Position numbers and translations under genes: made by a program
DNA from: Marinicella sp.
Lineage (GTDB): Bacteria; Pseudomonadota; Gammaproteobacteria; Xanthomonadales; Marinicellaceae
DNA length: 64,000 nt
Direction of reading: 5' to 3'
NCBI GenBank assembly: GCA_965230295.1
Contig: OZ246001.1
Coordinates: forward strand, 1,600,001 to 1,664,000
Shown: one piece after another, positions 11,956 through 19,552 of the stretch
Position numbering within the stretch: position 1 is the first letter of the stretch
How the letters are laid out: each line of letters opens with the position of its first letter
The notes under the pieces: model-generated
Told to the model about the DNA's origin: nothing
Seen by the model: only the letters and a program-made list of their open reading frames with translations
Database searches by the model: none

Positions 11956-12654
11956 ATGAACAAAAATCAATCAACTAAAGTATGCAGTGCCATGGCCCTG
12001 CTGTTACTGGCTTCAGCCACAACACAAGCAGAAGTCAGCACCAATTTTTCAATGGTTTCTGACTATGTGTTCCGTGGCATCTCACAATCTCAAGAAGACC
12101 CCACGGTACAAGGTGGCTTCGACTGGGCCCATGAATCTGGGTTTTACCTGGGAACTTGGGCTTCAGGCGTTGATTTCGTCGGTGCGGGTGATGACGATGG
12201 TGCCGATGTCGAATGGGACTTGTACCTGGGTTATGGTGGCAGCATCAATGTAGATTGGAGCTGGGATGTCAGCTATGTACAGTACCTGTATCCGGGCACT
12301 GTCTCAGGCGTAGACTACGATTACGGTGAAGCCTTGGTTTCATTCGGGTATAAAGAGCTGGTGGGATTGACCCTGGGTTATGCCAATGACGTGTTCAACT
12401 CAGATGAAACGGGCATTTATTATGAAGTTTCAGGTGGTTCCGACCTCGGTTCAGATGGTTGGAGTTGGAATGCGGCTGTCGGTCATTACGATTTGGATGA
12501 CCTCAACAGCTCATACACCCATTATTCAATTGGCGTAGCCAAAGCCTTAGAGAAACTCTCCGTTGGATTGACTTTACATGATTCAGATGGCGATGATGAG
12601 TTCGGTGACATCGCTGAAGCCAGAGCCGTGCTCTCTGTATCTACCGAGTTTTGA
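11956..12654 (+). CDS. TorF family putative porin (TIGR02001-like)
   Basis: Signal peptide, SDYVFRGISQS, P.VQGGFD, GFY.G.W.S; C-terminal Phe; GAGGAG RBS. Confidence 0.9.
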   Translation: MNKNQSTKVCSAMALLLLASATTQAEVSTNFSMVSDYVFRGISQSQEDPTVQGGFDWAHESGFYLGTWASGVDFVGAGDDDGADVEWDLYLGYGGSINVDWSWDVSYVQYLYPGTVSGVDYDYGEALVSFGYKELVGLTLGYANDVFNSDETGIYYEVSGGSDLGSDGWSWNAAVGHYDLDDLNSSYTHYSIGVAKALEKLSVGLTLHDSDGDDEFGDIAEARAVLSVSTEF

Positions 12655-12689
12655 TCACAATTTTTTATGCACTCAATGAGTGTTTTGCT

Positions 12690-12729
12690 CGGCCTCATCA
12701 ACTGACCCTTGAGATGAGGCCGCTTTTTT
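12690..12729 (+). terminator. Rho-independent terminator
   Basis: CGGCCTCATC/GATGAGGCCG stem followed by a T tract. Confidence 0.7.
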
Positions 12730-12732
12730 AAT

Positions 12733-12951
12733 TCATTGTTCCAAAGGCGATTGATTTTTCAAAGCGTTGATGCGTTTGGTTTCTTCAAAATCCTTGGGGT
12801 TGTTGGCCAGAATGCGCTGAGATTTTGCGATGTCCTGCAAGCTGTCATTGATTTGTTCAGCTTGGCGCAGGATTTTATAAAAAAAGGCCGCCATCAAAAT
12901 AAACAACGACACCACCACAAACAACAGTGCCAATACATCCGGTTGGTTCAT
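12733..12951 (-). CDS. Small single-pass membrane protein
   Basis: GAGGTG RBS, N-terminal TM helix, coiled-coil-like tail. Confidence 0.6.
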   Translation of the reverse strand: MNQPDVLALLFVVVSLFILMAAFFYKILRQAEQINDSLQDIAKSQRILANNPKDFEETKRINALKNQSPLEQ

Positions 12952-13011
12952 TTGTTCACCTCAAATACAGATTGTTCAAGTATACGTCAGCCCTCTACAA
13001 TCACCAAGCCA

Positions 13012-13139
13012 TTCACTGAGCGGAGTCGACGTGTAAACCTATTTATTCCATCAAACATCAGATTGAGGCGGCTTCGACTCCGCTCAGCCAGCGGAAGACC
13101 ACATATCATCAAACCCGTTCACTGAGCGGAGTCGAAGTG
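13012..13139. repeat. Orphan cluster of three TGAGCGGAGTCGAA-core repeats (forward/inverted/forward)
   Basis: TTCACTGAGCGGAGTCGACGTG 13012-13033; GGCTTCGACTCCGCTCAGCC 13070-13089; CCCGTTCACTGAGCGGAGTCGAAGTG 13114-13139. Confidence 0.9.
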
Positions 13140-13292
13140 GACTTAGTCTGGAAACAACCCAAACCACTCATTCAACAATTAAACAAGCTCATCAAAAGTG
13201 TATTCAAAGAACTGTTTGTTTTGTGTGCAACCTATTTTTTTGCATACCAAGATGATTGATTTCTGAAGCCGACTCAGCCAGAATGACGCGCT

Positions 13293-15179
13293 ATGATTCA
13301 ATTGACCAACCTTTCTTTGCGACGTGGCCATAAAGTCTTGTTTGAAGAGGCCACATTAAGCATCCACCCAGGACAAAAAGTCGGCTTGACCGGCGCCAAT
13401 GGCACCGGAAAATCAAGCCTGTTTGCCTTGTTCATGGGTCAGTTGCAAGCCGATCTGGGTGACTGCAGCGTACCGAAACACTGGCAGATTGCTCACGTCA
13501 AACAGGAAACCCCTGCCTTGGATCAATCAGCTCTGGATTATGTGCTGGATGGTGATGTGGTGTATAGATCCATTGAACAACAAATTGAGCAAGCCACGGC
13601 CGATGAAGCCCATGAGCAATTGGGTGAGTTGTATGCAGAGATGGAACGCATAGGTGGTTATGCCGCCCATGCCAAAGCCGGTCGCTTATTACATGGCCTG
13701 GGTTTTGCCGCAGGTGAAGAATTGCATTCGGTCAAATCCTTTTCAGGTGGCTGGCGCATGCGATTGAATCTCGCCCAAGCATTGATGTGTCCCTCAGATT
13801 TGTTGTTACTCGATGAGCCCACCAACCACTTGGATCTCGAAGCTGTGGTGTGGTTACAAGATTGGCTGAAACGCTACGAAGGGACCTTGGTGTTGATTTC
13901 ACATGACCGTGACTTTCTGGATGGGGTGATAAAGTTCATCTTGCACATTGAGCATGAAAAACTCAAGCAGTACACCGGTAATTATTCAGCCTTTGAAAAA
14001 ATCCGCACCGAGCAACTGGCCTTGCAACAAGCGATGTTTGAAAAACAGCAGAAACAAATTGCCCACATGCAATCTTATGTGGACCGTTTTCGCTACAAAG
14101 CCAGCAAAGCCAAACAGGCCCAGTCTCGACTGAAGGCTTTGGAACGCATGGACACCATTGCTGCCGCTCAAGTGGAAAACCCCTTTCATTTTGAATTCTA
14201 CCCATGCCAAAATCTCAAACACCAGATCGTTGAATTGGAGCATGCCGACATCGGCTATGGCGATCACCTGGTGTTTCAAGATTTAACCTTTTCTGTGACT
14301 GCAGGTGCTCGCATTGGTCTGTTAGGCCGCAATGGTGCAGGCAAATCAACCTTGATCAAAGCCATGTCTGGAGAAAAGGAACTGCAAAGTGGTGAGCTTA
14401 AAACAGCCAAAGACCTCCACATTGGTTATTTTGCACAACACCAATTAGAACAGTTAGACCCCCAATCCACAGCGATAGAACATGTGATGCAGCTGGATGC
14501 CAAAATCAACAGCACCGCAGCCACTGAACAAGCGGTGAAAAACTTCCTCGGTGGATTTGGCTTCCAGGGAGAAAAAGCCGACACCCCGATCAAGCCCTTT
14601 TCTGGCGGAGAAAAAGCACGCTTGGCTTTGGCCCTGATTGTCTATCAGCGCCCTGACTTGTTGTTGCTGGATGAGCCGACCAACCACTTGGACCTGAACA
14701 TGCGTGACGCCATCAGTTTCGCCTTGCAAAGCTATGAAGGCGCCGTGATCCTGGTCTCGCATGATAAACACATGCTCAATTCAGTGATCGATGAAATGGT
14801 TTACATCGATCGCGGGCAGATCCACCCCTTTGATGGCGATTTGGACGGTTACCAAAGTTTCATCAAAGCACAGATCAAAGCAGCTGAAGCTGAAGAACAA
14901 GCACAATCAGGGCAAGCTGATGTGGTGTCAATCAGCAAAAAGCAAAACCACAAAGCCAACAAAGCGGCCAAGAATCGTTTGAAAAAACTCGAAAGGATGG
15001 TCGATGATTACACGCAAAAACTGGTCGATGTCACAGCCAAATTGGGATCTGAAGACATCTACGAACCGGAGAATGTCCATGAACTCACCCTCTGTTTGAA
15101 CCAGTCCAAAGAGTTAAAAATGAAACTGGATGAAGCCGAAAACGAATGGATGGTACTCAGTGAGGAGTTGGAAGGGTGA
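13293..15179 (+). CDS. yheS: ABC-F family ATPase (YheS-like)
   Basis: Two ABC domains (GANGTGKS, GRNGAGKS, two FSGG, two LLLDEPTNHLD), no TM helices, linker RFRYKASKAKQAQSR. Confidence 0.88.
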   Translation: MIQLTNLSLRRGHKVLFEEATLSIHPGQKVGLTGANGTGKSSLFALFMGQLQADLGDCSVPKHWQIAHVKQETPALDQSALDYVLDGDVVYRSIEQQIEQATADEAHEQLGELYAEMERIGGYAAHAKAGRLLHGLGFAAGEELHSVKSFSGGWRMRLNLAQALMCPSDLLLLDEPTNHLDLEAVVWLQDWLKRYEGTLVLISHDRDFLDGVIKFILHIEHEKLKQYTGNYSAFEKIRTEQLALQQAMFEKQQKQIAHMQSYVDRFRYKASKAKQAQSRLKALERMDTIAAAQVENPFHFEFYPCQNLKHQIVELEHADIGYGDHLVFQDLTFSVTAGARIGLLGRNGAGKSTLIKAMSGEKELQSGELKTAKDLHIGYFAQHQLEQLDPQSTAIEHVMQLDAKINSTAATEQAVKNFLGGFGFQGEKADTPIKPFSGGEKARLALALIVYQRPDLLLLDEPTNHLDLNMRDAISFALQSYEGAVILVSHDKHMLNSVIDEMVYIDRGQIHPFDGDLDGYQSFIKAQIKAAEAEEQAQSGQADVVSISKKQNHKANKAAKNRLKKLERMVDDYTQKLVDVTAKLGSEDIYEPENVHELTLCLNQSKELKMKLDEAENEWMVLSEELEG

Positions 15180-15192
15180 TGGTCTCCCCTTT

Positions 15193-15623
15193 TCAAACCA
15201 CCTGACAGCCTGACAAGCCCTGTTCAAAACAATCCTTGGGCAACAAACCCAATTGGCAGTACAAGCCCATAAAATCGATGTGATTGTAAGCCTGTTGGAT
15301 TTGGCCTTGGCGTATTTCCACGTGGACATTGCCTGAAAAGCTGACTGCTTGGTTGTTGGCCCGGGCTCGGGCATCAATGGTGATCAATGCAGAAATCCAG
15401 TCTCCTTGTTCTATGTGGTGATCGATTGAAATTTTAAAATCTTTCAACAGTTCACTCATGGCATGATGAAAGACTTTGAAGTCTTTAGGACCCACCAATG
15501 TTTGTTTGTCTAAACCTCGGGCACGTCCAGCATCCACAAACAACTCATCAATGGCAGCCACTTCCTGGTCCGTCCGCACACGCTGCATCCACGCTTCCAT
15601 CAAAGCCAACTTTTCTGACATCA
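15193..15623 (-). CDS. SnoaL-like/ester cyclase family protein
   Basis: NTF2-like pattern (AIDELF, GP.DF..F, DFMGLY.QLG). Start moved to MMSEK after an AAAGGG RBS-like site. Confidence 0.75.
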
Positions 15624-15708
15624 TCACACCCTTTCTGTTATTAAGGACATTTATTATGTCACAATTTACACAATTGAACAAAGGGCTGATTAGATCATCA
15701 AAAAGACA

Positions 15709-15736
15709 CTGGATACCGGCTTTCGCCGGTATGACG
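15709..15736 (-). repeat. CGTC-type REP
   Basis: Reverse complement reads CGTCATACCGGCGAAAGCCGGTATCCAG. Confidence 0.8.
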
Positions 15737-15792
15737 ATATAACCAACTCAAGTGATTTCTGAGCTTATCTTCGTTTTTGAATAAACTAAAAC

Positions 15793-16179
15793 TTATATTG
15801 ACAGCAGCTGTTCTCTCAAGGCTTTAAGATCTTCAATGATGGCTTGTTGCTCTTTGGCCAAAGGCTGATTGAATTTCTGTTCCATTGATTTCGGGTATTG
15901 GTCCAAATTAAGCTCCATGGTCTCAAGTGCCAACAATTCAGGTTCATTGACGGCTGTCAATTCAGTGTTTTGCCAAGTCAGCCATGTCAAAACGGTCAGG
16001 CAGATGGCCGCTGCAACAGCCACCAGCCCAAGTTTCGGTGCTCTGCGGTGTTGAGTGGGTTGGTTGGCCAGCAGCGTCGCCATGTTCTGACTGAAATCTT
16101 TTTCTTGAAGTCGAGCCGCTGCCTGGTCCTGAATGGCCTTGGCATCTTGTTTGAGCTGTTTCTCTAAATCTGGATTCAT
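15793..16179 (-). CDS. Putative anti-sigma factor (single TM)
   Basis: Directly follows an ECF sigma gene; cytoplasmic N-terminus, one TM helix, short periplasmic part. Start taken at MNPDLEK. Confidence 0.65.
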   Translation of the reverse strand: MNPDLEKQLKQDAKAIQDQAAARLQEKDFSQNMATLLANQPTQHRRAPKLGLVAVAAAICLTVLTWLTWQNTELTAVNEPELLALETMELNLDQYPKSMEQKFNQPLAKEQQAIIEDLKALREQLLSI

Positions 16180-16180
16180 G

Positions 16181-16735
16181 TTATTTCGCCTCCAACAACA
16201 ACCCGAGTTCACTGTTGTTGCTGAGTTTCATTTTACTTCGATGTAAATTGGTTTTCACCCAAGATTCTGACTGATTCATGATGTGTGCGATTTCTTTGAT
16301 GCTGGCTTGTTCGACATAAAAGAACCACAACACATCATAGTTCTTGGGTGAAACATCTTGTTTGATGATGTTCCAAATATTGTTCTGGTCCACAGCAAAA
16401 GGGTCTTCTTCCGTCATATACTCTTGACCAGAAACAGCCTCAATGGCCGTGTGATAAACGGTTTTCAGTTTACTGAGAATCCTTCTGGCAATGGTGAACA
16501 ACCAAGTACTGAACTGCCACTGTGCATCATAGGTTTTCAGGTACTTAAAGGCGCTGATGAAAGTTTCCTGGAGCACATCATCCGCATCGAACCTGTTCTG
16601 GCAACGGGCCAACAAATAACTGTACAGACGCGCTTGGTAAGAAGCCACCAACTGCGTGAAGCAATTGGTGGCACCTTGTTGCGCTTGTTTGATCAGTTGC
16701 TGTTCAGTCACAGACCGATCCTCAATCGAAATCAA
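16181..16735 (-). CDS. ECF sigma-70 family RNA polymerase sigma factor
   Basis: DADDVLQETF, FSTWLFTIAR, region 4 IKEIAHIM...VKTNLHR. Confidence 0.92.
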   Translation of the reverse strand: MISIEDRSVTEQQLIKQAQQGATNCFTQLVASYQARLYSYLLARCQNRFDADDVLQETFISAFKYLKTYDAQWQFSTWLFTIARRILSKLKTVYHTAIEAVSGQEYMTEEDPFAVDQNNIWNIIKQDVSPKNYDVLWFFYVEQASIKEIAHIMNQSESWVKTNLHRSKMKLSNNSELGLLLEAK

Positions 16736-17618
16736 CCTCAGGAATCATGCTCATTGGAAACCCAGTGCTGATCAACAAGTCATTTCCCTGGTTACTGATA
16801 GACAGTCCAGACATCAAAGCAGCCAATACTGGTTTGTCATCATTCATGTTTGATAATGCATTCATGGCAATCAAACCATTGATCACTTGCTCCAACTGTT
16901 TTGCTGTGGCTTCGTCTGCTGTAGACAGTGCGGCGTCAATACTCAGGTTTTGCTCAGCTTCATACAAACTGGCTGAGAACTGTGTGACTTTTTGGAACAC
17001 CGCTGAATTGAATGGCCTGCTGTTGCTCTTCAAGTCTGCACCCATATGGGCCATGGCAGATTCAATGTTGACCAACAATGACACCATGCCTGAATTGTTC
17101 AGATCATATGTGCTGTAACTGTCAGCAGCCCAATTTTTGACTTCTGCTTCATCGAAACTCACCACAATGGTTTCATCGCTCAACTTGGTGCTAAAAAAAG
17201 ATTTGGTTTTGTTGTCACCACTGACTCTGAATTCTTCGACCACTTGCCCATTGTGTTTATAGGTGTTAAACAAACCCACATTGATGTCTTTGTCTGATTC
17301 GACCAAATACATCAAATTATTGATGAAGTCATTCAAGGTGAATTGACTGAAATCACCATGGAGAACCAATGATAAATCATCTTCTGCTTCACTGTGTCCA
17401 TAGGCCGTGATTTGCTTCACTTCATGAGGCAGGTGTTCGTTGATGGAAAAATCTGCGTGTGCCTCTTTGTGTTGAGGAATCAAAGGGACTATCTTGGTAC
17501 GTACTTGCTCAACATCCACAGAAAAATACCAATTGGCCTCATCATATGGGCTGGCCTGGGTGTTGATTGACAAGGCCAATGTGGCCATTAAAAATAGGTT
17601 GGTTAATGTTTTTTTCAT
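16722..17618 (-). CDS. Secreted hypothetical protein, first gene of the ECF operon
   Basis: Sec signal peptide (MKKTL...TQA); overlaps the sigma gene start. Confidence 0.8.
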   Translation of the reverse strand: MKKTLTNLFLMATLALSINTQASPYDEANWYFSVDVEQVRTKIVPLIPQHKEAHADFSINEHLPHEVKQITAYGHSEAEDDLSLVLHGDFSQFTLNDFINNLMYLVESDKDINVGLFNTYKHNGQVVEEFRVSGDNKTKSFFSTKLSDETIVVSFDEAEVKNWAADSYSTYDLNNSGMVSLLVNIESAMAHMGADLKSNSRPFNSAVFQKVTQFSASLYEAEQNLSIDAALSTADEATAKQLEQVINGLIAMNALSNMNDDKPVLAALMSGLSISNQGNDLLISTGFPMSMIPEVDFD

Positions 17619-17738
17619 ATCATGCTCCGATTCAATACTATTAGATATGAAAACTTATAGGCTTGGTAACTGCCAAAGGTTACAAATATGTGAAATTAAT
17701 TTCGTTCGCTTAGACGCAAGAAAGCTGCTGAGCCAGTA

Positions 17739-17755
17739 GGTGAGCATAGCGAATC
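17739..17755 (+). repeat. GGTGAGCNNAGCGAATC dispersed repeat copy
   Basis: GGTGAGCATAGCGAATC; related copies at 27744-27761 and 38710-38726 (reverse complement). Confidence 0.65.
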
Positions 17756-17784
17756 ACCACAAAGCGAATTTCAGTGAGCAGTTA

Positions 17785-17865
17785 GGCTTCGACTCCGTTT
17801 GTTATGAGTTGGCTGAATGTCTCAGCCTGCAAGACACCCGTTCACTGAGCGGAGTCGAAGTGAAC
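17785..17865. repeat. Left 81-bp repeat block flanking the GIY-YIG gene
   Basis: GGCTTCGACTCCG[23-nt insert]CTCAGCC followed by GTTCACTGAGCGGAGTCGAAGTGAAC. Confidence 0.9.
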
Positions 17866-17931
17866 TTGAGTGAAACACTAATTTCAGTATCTCTGATATG
17901 TTAAAGTAAATGAGTCTATAAGGAATTGATT

Positions 17932-18246
17932 ATGAATGGATACGTTTACATACTCGAATGCAGTGATGGCAGTTTTTATACTGGCAGCACAAAAGATATT
18001 GAGCAACGTATCTGGCAGCATCAGAATGGACAAGGTGCAAAATATACCCAAAAAAGGCTGCCTGTAAAACTTGTATATATTGAACATTGTTTTAGAATCG
18101 ATGATGCTTACCACAGGGAAGGACAAATAAAAGGATGGAGCAAGAAGAAGAAACTGGCTTTGATAAACAATAATTTAGAAGCTCTAAAAGCCTATTCCAT
18201 TTGTTTGAATAACAGCCATCATATGAACCAAGATCCCATTGATTAG
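17932..18246 (+). CDS. Stand-alone GIY-YIG nuclease (UPF0213/YhbQ-like)
   Basis: GYVYILECSDGSFYTGST...R..QH..G.GAKYT..R.PV.LVY.E....A..RE.QIKGWS..KK; AAGGA RBS before ATG 17932. Confidence 0.93.
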   Translation: MNGYVYILECSDGSFYTGSTKDIEQRIWQHQNGQGAKYTQKRLPVKLVYIEHCFRIDDAYHREGQIKGWSKKKKLALINNNLEALKAYSICLNNSHHMNQDPID

Positions 18247-18248
18247 CA

Positions 18249-18375
18249 GGCTTCGACTCCGCTCAGCCAGCGGTAATCCCTAATCTAAACTTTTGGCTTC
18301 GGCTCCGTTTGTCATGAGCATGTCGAATGGCTCAGCCAGCGCGATTTCCGTTCACTGAGCGGAGTCGAAGTGAAC
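18249..18375. repeat. Right repeat cluster: simple inverted copy plus 81-bp block
   Basis: GGCTTCGACTCCGCTCAGCC at 18249-18268; block 18295-18375 is a direct repeat of 17785-17865. Confidence 0.9.
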
Positions 18376-18389
18376 ATGAGGTTTGTTCA

Positions 18390-19061
18390 CTAGCCCATAC
18401 CAAAAATCAAATAAATGATTTCCACCCCTTTTTGGGTGTGGTGTAGCAACAAGAATGACAACAAATACAGTAACGAAGACAACAAGCCCAAAGACCACAG
18501 GTATTTTGTATTGACTTGAAACATCTGATGCAATCCATAAACTGCGATGGCGGTGGCATGTAACCAGATCAGAACCAACAAGTAGATATGCCAATCCATC
18601 ATCGCCTCAGCATGAGCCAGTTGTAAAAACAAGTTGTGGTATTTTTCCCCGGTAAAACCGGCATGGACCTCAAACACCATATTCCACAACCACAATGGAA
18701 TCCAGTAAACCACAATAAACCACCCAACCATCAAACCCACTTGATGGTGGTTGCGCAAACCCAACCAGGCAACACCAGCAACCAAAATCGAAACCAAGGC
18801 CCCGTGCACCAACAGCACTGCAAAAATTTCTCCTGGTTTTTCCTGCTCCTGAACAAAGGCAAAGCTTGAAAATAACAACGACAATACCGTGATGATGATC
18901 ACCATCAGTGCAATCGACTTTTTCACATTCAGCATGGCATGCTCAATGGCGTTGTTGTGATTCTTAACACCTGCCATCACCCAACTTGGGCGCAGATAAA
19001 AACAAAACATGGCCATAAAGGCATGGTACAAGGCAGCGCATTCTTTGATGATGTATTGCAT
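18390..19061 (-). CDS. Hypothetical multi-pass membrane protein
   Basis: About five hydrophobic segments; fills the intergenic space. Confidence 0.6.
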   Translation of the reverse strand: MQYIIKECAALYHAFMAMFCFYLRPSWVMAGVKNHNNAIEHAMLNVKKSIALMVIIITVLSLLFSSFAFVQEQEKPGEIFAVLLVHGALVSILVAGVAWLGLRNHHQVGLMVGWFIVVYWIPLWLWNMVFEVHAGFTGEKYHNLFLQLAHAEAMMDWHIYLLVLIWLHATAIAVYGLHQMFQVNTKYLWSLGLLSSLLYLLSFLLLHHTQKGVEIIYLIFGMG

Positions 19062-19159
19062 GTTGGCATTGTAACCAAAGTGTGACTTGGCTTGAACTTT
19101 AATTGAACCATCTGACTTTATCAGAGGTCCGAATTCTTAATTAATCAAGGAGTCTTGGC

Positions 19160-19552
19160 GTGAAAAAACAAAATACTTTGCAGCAACAACAGGATGAAAT
19201 TAACATCACACCGATGATGGATGTGGTATTTATCATGCTGATCTTTTTTGTGGTCACCGCTTCATTTGTCAAGGAAACCGGCATTGGCATCAGTCGCGCC
19301 ACAGCTGCTGTAGAGCCCAATGAAAATGCAAAAATCGCAACCATCAAGTTGGATCCTCAAGGATACAGCATCAACGGACATGCTGTTTTATTGGATGGCA
19401 TTGAAGCCAGAATGGCTCAGCTGAAAGCTGAATTTCCAAACCTTCAAGCCCAATTGATCACGGCCAAAAACATCAAAGTGAACACCTTGGTCAGAGCGGT
19501 AGAACAGGTCAAAAATGCCGAGGTCAAAGGTCTGTCTGTAGCCACTTATTAA
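19160..19552 (+). CDS. exbD: ExbD/TolR family protein
   Basis: INITPMMDVVFIMLIFFVVT motif; AGGAG RBS before GTG. Confidence 0.9.
   Translation: MKKQNTLQQQQDEINITPMMDVVFIMLIFFVVTASFVKETGIGISRATAAVEPNENAKIATIKLDPQGYSINGHAVLLDGIEARMAQLKAEFPNLQAQLITAKNIKVNTLVRAVEQVKNAEVKGLSVATY

Follow-up and report, generated by a model that had tools for sequence, protein, structure and literature searches.

The stretch analysed here, called the window below, is 64,000 nt of the genome of Marinicella sp. (assembly GCA_965230295.1, contig OZ246001.1, positions 1,600,001-1,664,000 of the forward strand; G000:C1:1600001-1664000, where G000 denotes this genome of 4.008 Mb with 44% G+C). It contains a small intact gene for a GIY-YIG nuclease of 104 amino acids (aa), which lies among copies of a short hairpin repeat and forms with them a cassette of about 700 bp (Table 1). 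By analogy, this cassette most likely works like the Ssn nucleases and their SRM repeats described by Chenal et al. (Nat Commun 2025; PMC11893778), in a sister clade with its own site outside that study. A first-pass annotation of the sequence had placed the gene amid five repeat copies, which resolve into three full cores and two half-copies (17784-17797 and 18294-18307). The 14-nt core TGAGCGGAGTCGAA is referred to as type 1, and a second core, TGAGCYTGTCGAA, as type 2. With at most two mismatches, the type-1 core occurs six times in the window (13017+, 13073-, 13123+, 17846+, 18252- and 18356+) versus 0.17 expected, and none of 100 shuffles reached six.

The copies nearest to the gene, 17846(+) and 18252(-), face each other as described in that annotation, the downstream hairpin starting at 18249, right behind the stop codon. 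In DNA, unit A folds with a 7-bp stem (-4.5 kcal/mol), and the doublet of unit B and the second unit A has 28-nt arms that are 86% complementary, the stretch 18246-18378 folding at -28.7 kcal/mol (z -4.4). The direct repeats reported around the gene are indeed present; their length, given as 81 bp, was measured as 89 nt at 82% identity, and the left block folds at -16.8 kcal/mol (z -3.6). The gene-less cluster 4.8 kb away lies within the intergenic interval 12952-13251 and folds at -25.1 kcal/mol (z -3.8).

Table 1. Coordinates of the nuclease gene, the hairpin units and the blocks that contain them (positions in the window)
Feature	Position	Strand	Remarks
GIY-YIG nuclease gene, UPF0213-like clade	17932-18246	+	intact 104-aa open reading frame, Pfam PF01541, single domain
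Hairpin unit A, stem GTTCAC/GTGAAC around TGAGCGGAGTCGAA at 17846-17859	17840-17865	+	nearest upstream unit
Hairpin unit B, stem GGC/GCC around the TGAGCGGAGTCGAA core at 18252-18265	18249-18268	-	2 nt past the stop codon
Second copy of unit A	18350-18375	+	doublet with unit B, long imperfect hairpin
Left 89-nt block	17782-17870		degenerate B-type half-unit (17784-17797) and unit A
Right 89-nt block	18292-18380		direct repeat of the left block, 82% identity
Whole cassette (gene and repeats), about 700 bp	17687-18393		three congeners lack it at this intergenic site
Gene-less repeat cluster	13017-13136		13017-13030 (+, 1 mismatch), 13073-13086 (-), 13123-13136 (+)

The nuclease and the hairpin

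The open reading frame (ORF) is preceded by AAGGA 7 nt 5' of its ATG. The protein matches PF01541 over residues 3-74 (E 4e-20; 72.3 bits versus a cut-off of 22.6); GIY-YIG and T5orf172 are its only Pfam matches, and the same scan gave no match to the HUH/Y1 transposase domain PF01797. Among solved UPF0213 proteins, a family whose label we take to be cd10456, it matches 1zg2 (E 3e-17) and 1ywl (E 1.3e-11), and it is 32% identical to E. coli YhbQ (E 2e-13). Residues Y6, Y16, R26, H30 and E63 do not vary among 40 homologues (51-79% identity) or in a wider set of seven, and the motif tyrosines, the arginine and the metal-binding glutamate presumably have the catalytic roles assigned from work on I-TevI and UvrC. 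Cys10 is also invariant in the 40 homologues. A C-x-N-x-x-[H/S] motif past residue 80 (SICLNNSH here, residues 91-96) is present in 40 of 76 intact homologues, and an AY[RK]D tail takes its place in 12 of the 76; judged from the sequence, Cys10 and the C-x-N-x-x-[H/S] tail may form a metal site or a DNA-reading element.

By tblastn, G000 contains four GIY-YIG genes, with a single copy of the window clade. In a tree of 98 rows and 92 columns, the inner forks of which are weak owing to the few columns, 12 Ssn-like rows make up one side of a branch with 100% support in the Shimodaira-Hasegawa-like approximate likelihood-ratio test (SH-aLRT), 11 YhbQ-like rows form a separate branch with 99% support, and the remaining rows constitute the window clade. 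An Ssn-like paralogue, among the genes flanked by NTS repeats, matches 1zg2 with an E value of only 0.11.

When the genomic copies of the repeat are aligned in register, a variable stem (GTTCAC/GTGAAC, CTGGC/GCCAG, ATCC/GGAT) surrounds a conserved core. Under a general definition, i.e., at least three Watson-Crick pairs flanking TGAG-N5/6-CGAA, G000 contains 57 hairpins; its reversed sequence has 5 and a shuffled version 4. They fall into 38 clusters. Stop-free frames of 150 codons or more cover 88% of the genome, and 52 of the 57 hairpins are located outside them. The multi-unit arrangement met most often is a (-)(+) pair, and such pairs fold as long imperfect hairpins in single-stranded DNA (ssDNA), with z values of -3.6 to -4.4.

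The stem is conserved as a structure rather than as a sequence. Near the 80 homologous genes introduced below, matches to the loop motif alone were flanked by at least three consecutive Watson-Crick pairs in 168 of 208 cases. Across 150 distinct units, 85.4% of the cells are paired versus 66.4% in shuffles, none of 500 of which reached the observed value; the covariation score is 0.507 versus 0.167, changes on both sides of the stem occur in 231 cells versus 78, and registers that were slid along the alignment leave 32-55% of the cells paired. Six bases ahead of the core stands a G with 95% conservation, whereas its partner column is not conserved; this gives the unit a direction. On the basis of the sequence, TGAG could pair with CGAA as T-A, G.A, A.G and G-C around a loop of 5-6 nt.

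Two further arrangements of the hairpin were observed. A (-)...(+) pair lies 20 kb before the window at G000:C1:1579931 and 1580238, 307 nt apart, and tblastn found no GIY-YIG remnant between the two hairpins. In the congener G006, long head-to-tail arrays of units spaced by 28-39 nt are present on contigs C35, C97, C157, C334 and C26, with 11 units at 31-nt spacing on C35, so the repeat can grow as tandem arrays too.

Association of gene and repeat across genomes

Three of the four GIY-YIG genes of G000 have a hairpin within 300 bp, and three or more were reached in none of 200,000 random placements. A wider comparison used a profile from a four-sequence alignment, with one genome per species, which yielded at least 504 confirmed relatives; the best 80 of them, with 53-80% identity and from 11 phyla (chiefly Bacteroidota, Pseudomonadota and Spirochaetota), are the homologue loci considered here, 79 of them outside the genus. 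The cleaner test is given by the 14-nt core, which was fixed before these loci had been seen. At 50 of the 79 loci, a copy with at most two mismatches is found no more than 200 bp from the gene, and the density of such copies is 5.24 per kb near the gene versus 0.21 per kb far from it, with no match in the reversed sequence; the flanking of homologues by the repeat, which the first-pass annotation had proposed to check, is thereby borne out. With at most one mismatch, the corresponding values are 43 of 79 loci and 3.49 per kb near the gene versus 0.10 per kb beyond 600 bp, again with none in the reversed sequence.

At 70 of 80 loci, the general hairpin occurs no farther than 300 bp from the gene, and at 36 of 80 it does so on either side; when units overlapping the 3' tail of the ORF are counted, 74 of 80 loci have one. 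The density of the hairpin falls from 4.57 per kb (0-300 bp) to 0.41 per kb (300-1000 bp) and 0.115 per kb beyond, and the reversed-sequence control gave 4 matches in 314 kb. The arrangement is also regular: the nearest upstream unit is in (+) orientation at 49 of 62 loci, at a median of 36.5 nt before the start codon, and the nearest downstream unit is in (-) orientation at 56 of 70 loci, at a median of about 0 nt from codon 104, the pattern met most often being (-)(+) gene (-). Direct repeats that are 50-480 nt long and reach an alignment score of 40 flank the gene at 29 of 77 loci, compared with none of 131 shifted controls. Homologous ORFs often read through into the downstream hairpin (L041, L042, L043, L060, L064, L094 and L113 among them) and then end in tails of the kind ...GFDSAQP... 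or LRLRSA; variable C-termini or errors of annotation probably account for these. Broken homologues were seen at three of the 80 loci (L077, L082 and L095).

Among the loci of relatives, the association is specific to clade, all six window-clade genes having an adjoining hairpin, compared with 1 of 12 Ssn-like genes and none of the 11 YhbQ-like genes. It also appears in a sample of 150 genomes, one each from 150 other families of the class. Strong profile matches (E <=1e-45) were obtained only in G120, G112 and G183, and these three have the highest counts of exact TGAGCGNAGYCGAA among the 150 (20, 4 and 163, respectively), the remaining 147 genomes, including the unpublished G078 and G180, having at most 3 each. 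By our own arithmetic, three named genomes would by chance rank first to third among 150 with a probability of about 2 in a million. In G112, all four cores flank the gene as (-)(+) gene (-)(+).

Within the genus (23 genomes besides G000), close orthologues are present in G010 (79% identity), G006 (72%), G021 (frameshifted), G022 (53%) and G003 (55%, with an in-frame TAG). Type-1 cores with at most one mismatch number 46 in G000, 78 in G006, 28 in G010 and 29 in G021, so that the expected relation between repeat number and presence of the gene is seen here as in the family sample; among the other congeners, there are 35 in G017, 19 in G012, 9, 7, 4 and 4 in four genomes, and 0-2 in 14. G003 and G022 have 0 and 1 type-1 cores, respectively. 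Their orthologues, the 53-55% identical ones, are instead flanked by the type-2 core, the exact counts of which are highest in these same two genomes (72 in G003 and 36 in G022).

A rival reading is that the repeats are independent REP-like (repetitive extragenic palindrome) or terminator-like elements, moved by another enzyme such as a RAYT-like one (REP-associated tyrosine transposase) or shaped by host processes, and only accumulate around this gene, or that they are RNA regulators of the gene. The one PF01797 gene of G000, a RAYT-like Y1 transposase gene (E 8e-10), lies at G000:C1:1669270-1669825 (L116), 5.4 kb beyond the window; the repeats do persist without the nuclease gene in some congeners, and repeat families cluster in mosaic intergenic regions. 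Several RAYT palindromes were seen beside TGAG-hairpin clusters, for instance at 1.376, 1.387, 2.307 and 2.338 Mb. However, the RAYT-like gene is flanked by inverted palindromes of a different kind, AGCG-NN-GACTTCAGTC-NN-CGYT, with about 26 stem-flanked copies in the genome, and there is no TGAG hairpin within 4 kb of it; the TGAG repeats are therefore not the REPs of this gene. The link between nuclease gene and hairpin in 11 phyla and in the one-per-family sample, with a fixed architecture, and the lack of hairpins at the YhbQ-like paralogues also argue against independent repeats. An RNA role fits poorly, because the repeats are dispersed, their opposite orientations upstream and downstream of the gene are unlike a single RNA motif, and neither Rfam nor a terminator search matched them: a scan of 12500-19500 (E <=1) left the repeats unmatched, its sole match being unrelated and weak (14505-14583), and a consensus scan of 17600-18450, which carries no weight by itself, detected neither a promoter-like site on the gene strand nor a terminator-like site. 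Taken with these points, independence of gene and repeat is highly improbable.

Gain, loss and probable movement of the cassette

The cassette has as its neighbours a 298-aa protein without a Pfam match, an ECF-type (extracytoplasmic function) sigma factor, a 223-aa membrane protein and ExbD, which agrees with its earlier description as lying between unrelated genes. No transposase or integrase family was found among 59 window proteins (the GIY-YIG ORF, its 4 neighbours and 54 others of at least 120 aa), which agrees with the earlier statement that the window has no transposase. Elsewhere in the window, the frame 15476-15742 ends in ...IPAFAGMT (about 15700-15742), a tail of the sort that ATTCC-N-GGAAT hairpins (NTS/dRS3 kind) presumably yield when translated.

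The gap between the neighbour genes of the cassette is 771 nt in G000 versus 123 nt in G006, 103 nt in G003 and 96 nt in G015, and the three short gaps contain no repeat. Empty sites in relatives had been proposed as a check. Contigs from three sequencing runs contain the window's own sequence. In addition, low-depth divergent contigs from two public runs join 17686 to 18394, representing the empty form in a relative; this junction agrees with the empty sites and is not evidence of excision in the present strain. Other contig joints lie inside repeats, with sides of 20-28 letters.

In G010, G006 and G021, the orthologue is found with the same repeat architecture at the 13-kb site, 4.8 kb from its position in G000. 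The flanks of L002, L003 and L006 align to 12868-12951 of the window and those of L002 and L006 also to 13252-13699, the downstream flank being available from G010 and G021 only, as the G006 contig ends inside the cassette. In G000, the 13-kb site keeps only (+)(-)(+) repeats. Loss at this site and gain 4.8 kb away would be the simplest reading. Gene-less doublets are polymorphic as well: G006, G010 and G015 lack the one at 1.27 Mb and have gaps of 44-90 nt in its place, and G003 and G015 lack the one at 0.20 Mb. At the 1.27-Mb site (G000:C1 ~1269950-1270020), where G000 has a type-1 doublet, G003 has a type-2 hairpin, GGTGGC-TGAGCCTGTCGAA-GCC (G003:C8, gap 474570-474762; L133), and this switch of type could be due to independent insertion or to conversion in place. 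At the repeat site at 2.12 Mb (L119), the flanks are not adjacent in G003, and the contigs of G010 break there. Neither a target-site duplication nor a precise excision scar was seen at the two sites of the cassette.

These polymorphisms bear on how the repeats spread. REP-associated tyrosine (HUH) transposases are flanked by inverted REPs and maintain gene-less REP doublets elsewhere, and the first-pass annotation proposed the same role for the GIY-YIG enzyme. In such an analogue of REP doublets forming hairpins (REPIN) and their RAYT, the nuclease would drive the multiplication of doublets and cassette by cutting at the hairpins, followed by host repair, template switching or gene conversion, and the system would be chiefly selfish. 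The likeness to RAYT/REP lies in the bracketing of the gene by inverted hairpin repeats, like transposon ends, in the single clade gene per genome, and in the gene-less inverted doublets, i.e., long hairpins, dispersed in intergenic DNA. The presence of the cassette in G000 and its absence in three congeners, the alternative site that holds the gene in three congeners and only repeats in G000, the polymorphic doublets, the patchy distribution in the genus with broken copies (the TAG in G003 and the frameshift in G021), and the separate core types of G000 and G003 at one site are all consistent with it, and the 53-80% identity across 11 phyla among the best 80 of at least 504 relatives suggests horizontal spread.

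However, the enzyme is a GIY-YIG hydrolase rather than an HUH/Y1 transposase, and no strand-joining step is known for GIY-YIG enzymes, which hydrolyse DNA. The copy number of 57 hairpins is modest, the repeats are found as orphans in four congeners, and no duplication or scar was seen at the cassette's two sites, as noted above. The gene is patchy in the genus and shared across phyla, in contrast to the vertically stable RAYT, and G000 has its separate RAYT-like gene with its own REP. Finally, the only role tested for Ssn is the modulation of natural transformation, not mobility (PMC11893778). A nuclease-driven spread of this kind is thus possible but the less probable outcome: a nuclease paired with a structured repeat is what the data support, and a RAYT-like role as originally stated is not, in view of the hydrolytic enzyme, the orphan repeats and the separate RAYT.

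The direct repeats allow a different route, in which a gene-less repeat is cut as duplex and repaired from the gene-bearing copy, with the 89-nt blocks as homology arms, in the manner of a selfish homing gene. Many GIY-YIG enzymes are homing endonucleases, and the window gene shares with those of the I-TevI type the catalytic domain and its appearance and disappearance at a site. Direct repeats of 50-480 nt flank the gene at 29 of 77 loci, gene-less copies of the same blocks occur elsewhere, and related genomes have the gene at one or the other of two repeat-bearing sites, 4.8 kb from each other. The window gene differs from I-TevI-type genes, however: its product, of 104 aa and a single Pfam domain, lacks a DNA-binding domain, and the gene is not set in an intron or intein and has no duplicate copies; there is one clade copy per genome despite 38 repeat clusters, and the empty sites of relatives hold no repeat. 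Moreover, the Ssn relatives that were tested do not cut duplex DNA (PMC11893778). Duplex homing is possible and not favoured, owing to the one gene copy, the lack of a DNA-binding domain and the repeat-free empty sites, and we regard it as unlikely.

Relation to Ssn nucleases and proposed function

SsnA of N. meningitidis (CAX49033.1) is a single-domain GIY-YIG protein of 94 aa (CDD cd10448) that binds and cuts only ssDNA, beside the NTS hairpin repeat, and does not cut duplex DNA; three further Ssn homologues cut their own repeats (PMC11893778). Ssn homologue genes have a repeat nearby in 71% and on both sides in 42% of cases, and the NTS-ssnA-NTS layout was likened by Chenal et al. to IS200/IS605 and REP/BIME (PMC11893778). 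The pairing of a small GIY-YIG nuclease with a structured repeat, and its comparison with REP and IS200, were thus already in that study, and the window does not present a new kind of system in this respect. The window cassette resembles Ssn in several ways, namely in the single-domain GIY-YIG protein of less than 150 aa (about 95-105 aa; 104 aa here), in the hairpin repeats that lie on both sides of the gene and also without a gene in intergenic DNA, in the joint change of nuclease subtype and repeat subtype, and in the genomes that keep repeats without the gene. A conserved 5' flank gives the NTS its orientation (PMC11893778), as the -6 G does for the hairpin here. The Ssn-like paralogues of G000 and G018 adjoin hairpins with the GTCAT...ATCT flanks of the NTS and a TGAG...CGAA core. 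In G000, these hairpins were seen at G000:C1:1943600-1944500 and 3081700-3082500, a further repeat, GGGAGATTCCTCC.CTCGCTTCACTCGGTCGGAATGAC, is present too, and the copy at 1.94 Mb has stops inside its match.

There are also differences. The window protein belongs to another clade, nearer UPF0213, from which the Ssn-like rows are split with the full SH-aLRT support given above, and the window repeat has a short variable stem and a conserved core of 13-14 nt, in contrast to the long conserved stem and small loop of the Ssn repeats (PMC11893778). The published SRM search pattern, HGTCWYN(0-2)YYVSBRHN(0-5)WNVSBRGN(0-2)RNCYNB (PMC11893778), is not matched by unit A, unit B or the GTCAT-flanked variant; it has no match within 35 nt of any of the 46 cores of G000, and one within 300 bp of the gene at 1 of 80 homologue loci. 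It does find the canonical NTS beside two Ssn-like genes of relatives. The whole of G000 contains 64 matches to the pattern, so that this genome seems to have classical repeats of the Ssn type too. UPF0213 proteins (E. coli YhbQ, B. halodurans BH0048, E. faecalis EF2693) are the closest solved or named relatives, with the same size and a single domain, but the YhbQ-like genes of the relatives searched lack flanking hairpins and form their own branch.

Six species that carry the window clade were checked in Supplementary Data 4 (PMC11893778). For five of them, Neolewinella antarctica, Ulvibacterium marinum, Leptospira jelokensis, Flavobacterium humi and Lutibacter oceani, this table records no SsnA homologue by tblastn, NO for a cd10448 score >100, and an SRM enrichment of 0-0.96; for Winogradskyella echinorum, three of the four criteria for a homologue read YES, and a separate Ssn gene may be present. 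The string TCGAA was not found in the ten readable supplements of the study. Chenal et al. assign a protein to Ssn by a top CDD match to cd10448 (GIY-YIG_unchar_3) or a blastp E value below 1e-10 to N. meningitidis SsnA (PMC11893778). Together with the Ssn-like paralogues, these tables point against membership of the window gene in the Ssn family, which is set apart here by way of those paralogues and tables and not by the SsnA sequence or CDD. A literature search on GIY-YIG with REP, RAYT, MITE (miniature inverted-repeat transposable element), hairpin, YhbQ, UPF0213 or COG2827 returned nothing relevant beyond PMC11893778, no follow-up on bacterial Ssn was among the matches listed, and the core strings of the repeat did not occur in the relevant literature.

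The observed association of gene and repeat, the covariation of the hairpin, the common architecture and the variable presence of cassette and doublets among genomes are best read, in our view with a probability of about 0.7, as those of an intact single-domain GIY-YIG endonuclease for which the repeats would be the cognate DNA sites and which would act in the manner of Ssn. The recognised site would be a hairpin with a stem of 3-8 bp and free sequence, a G at -6 and a TGAG...CGAA frame around a loop of 5-6 nt. By analogy with Ssn, the enzyme would bind this hairpin in ssDNA that arises during replication, repair, transformation or conjugation and would then cut that strand nearby, probably with no action on duplex DNA or RNA. 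An enzyme that reads ssDNA hairpins at the ends of its own cassette would resemble IS200/IS605, which differs in fold and chemistry and has its ends on one strand, whereas the nearest hairpins are inverted here. The cassette, typically (-)(+) gene (-)(+), would be gained, lost and moved as a whole, with gene-less (-)(+) doublets spread over intergenic DNA. Binding, ssDNA cutting and their consequences, e.g., control of incoming DNA or a spread of repeats by break and repair, are inferred by comparison with the Ssn system.

Several points weigh against this assignment. The proposed action on ssDNA is carried over from Ssn, which is another clade. The general TGAG-N5/6-CGAA motif was widened after inspection of the homologue loci. 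Of the 80 loci, 10 have no hairpin within 300 bp when ORF-tail units are excluded, and 6 of 80 have none when such units are included. Single units alone fold weakly (z -1.5 and -1.0), and the G.A pairs proposed for the core are our own suggestion, which the folding program does not model. Orphan repeats occur in G017 (35 type-1 and 22 type-2), G012 (19 type-1), G019 (33 type-2) and G015 (27 type-2); the window-clade gene was not found in these four genomes, which are 94-99% complete and have best profile matches of 1e-13 to 6e-19. The repeats can thus persist, or be served, without the clade gene.

Beyond the single cassette, it is about an even chance that the clade constitutes a second family of hairpin-guided ssDNA endonucleases, UPF0213-like and not cd10448, in at least 11 phyla, with its own site (a short stem of free sequence, a TGAG/CGAA frame that probably consists of tandem G.A pairs, and the -6 G), moving as a cassette and switching its hairpin type along with the nuclease subtype, even at one intergenic site. 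If true, the partnership of nuclease and hairpin would be a property of the whole small GIY-YIG radiation, and the published SRM pattern and family boundary would miss a large part of the phenomenon, with at least 504 relatives in the clade. Site-specific cutters of ssDNA only were first described in 2025 (PMC11893778). Such enzymes are wanted as tools, and a sister clade with a compact, easily recognised site would widen the range with new single-strand cutting specificities. The pairing would also account for a class of repeats found between genes in many Bacteroidota, Proteobacteria and Spirochaetes, as well as for the ...GFDSAQP... tails of small GIY-YIG proteins. For the genus itself, the relocation of the gene and the switch of repeat type would offer a tractable case for the question of whether nucleases drive the spread of repeats.

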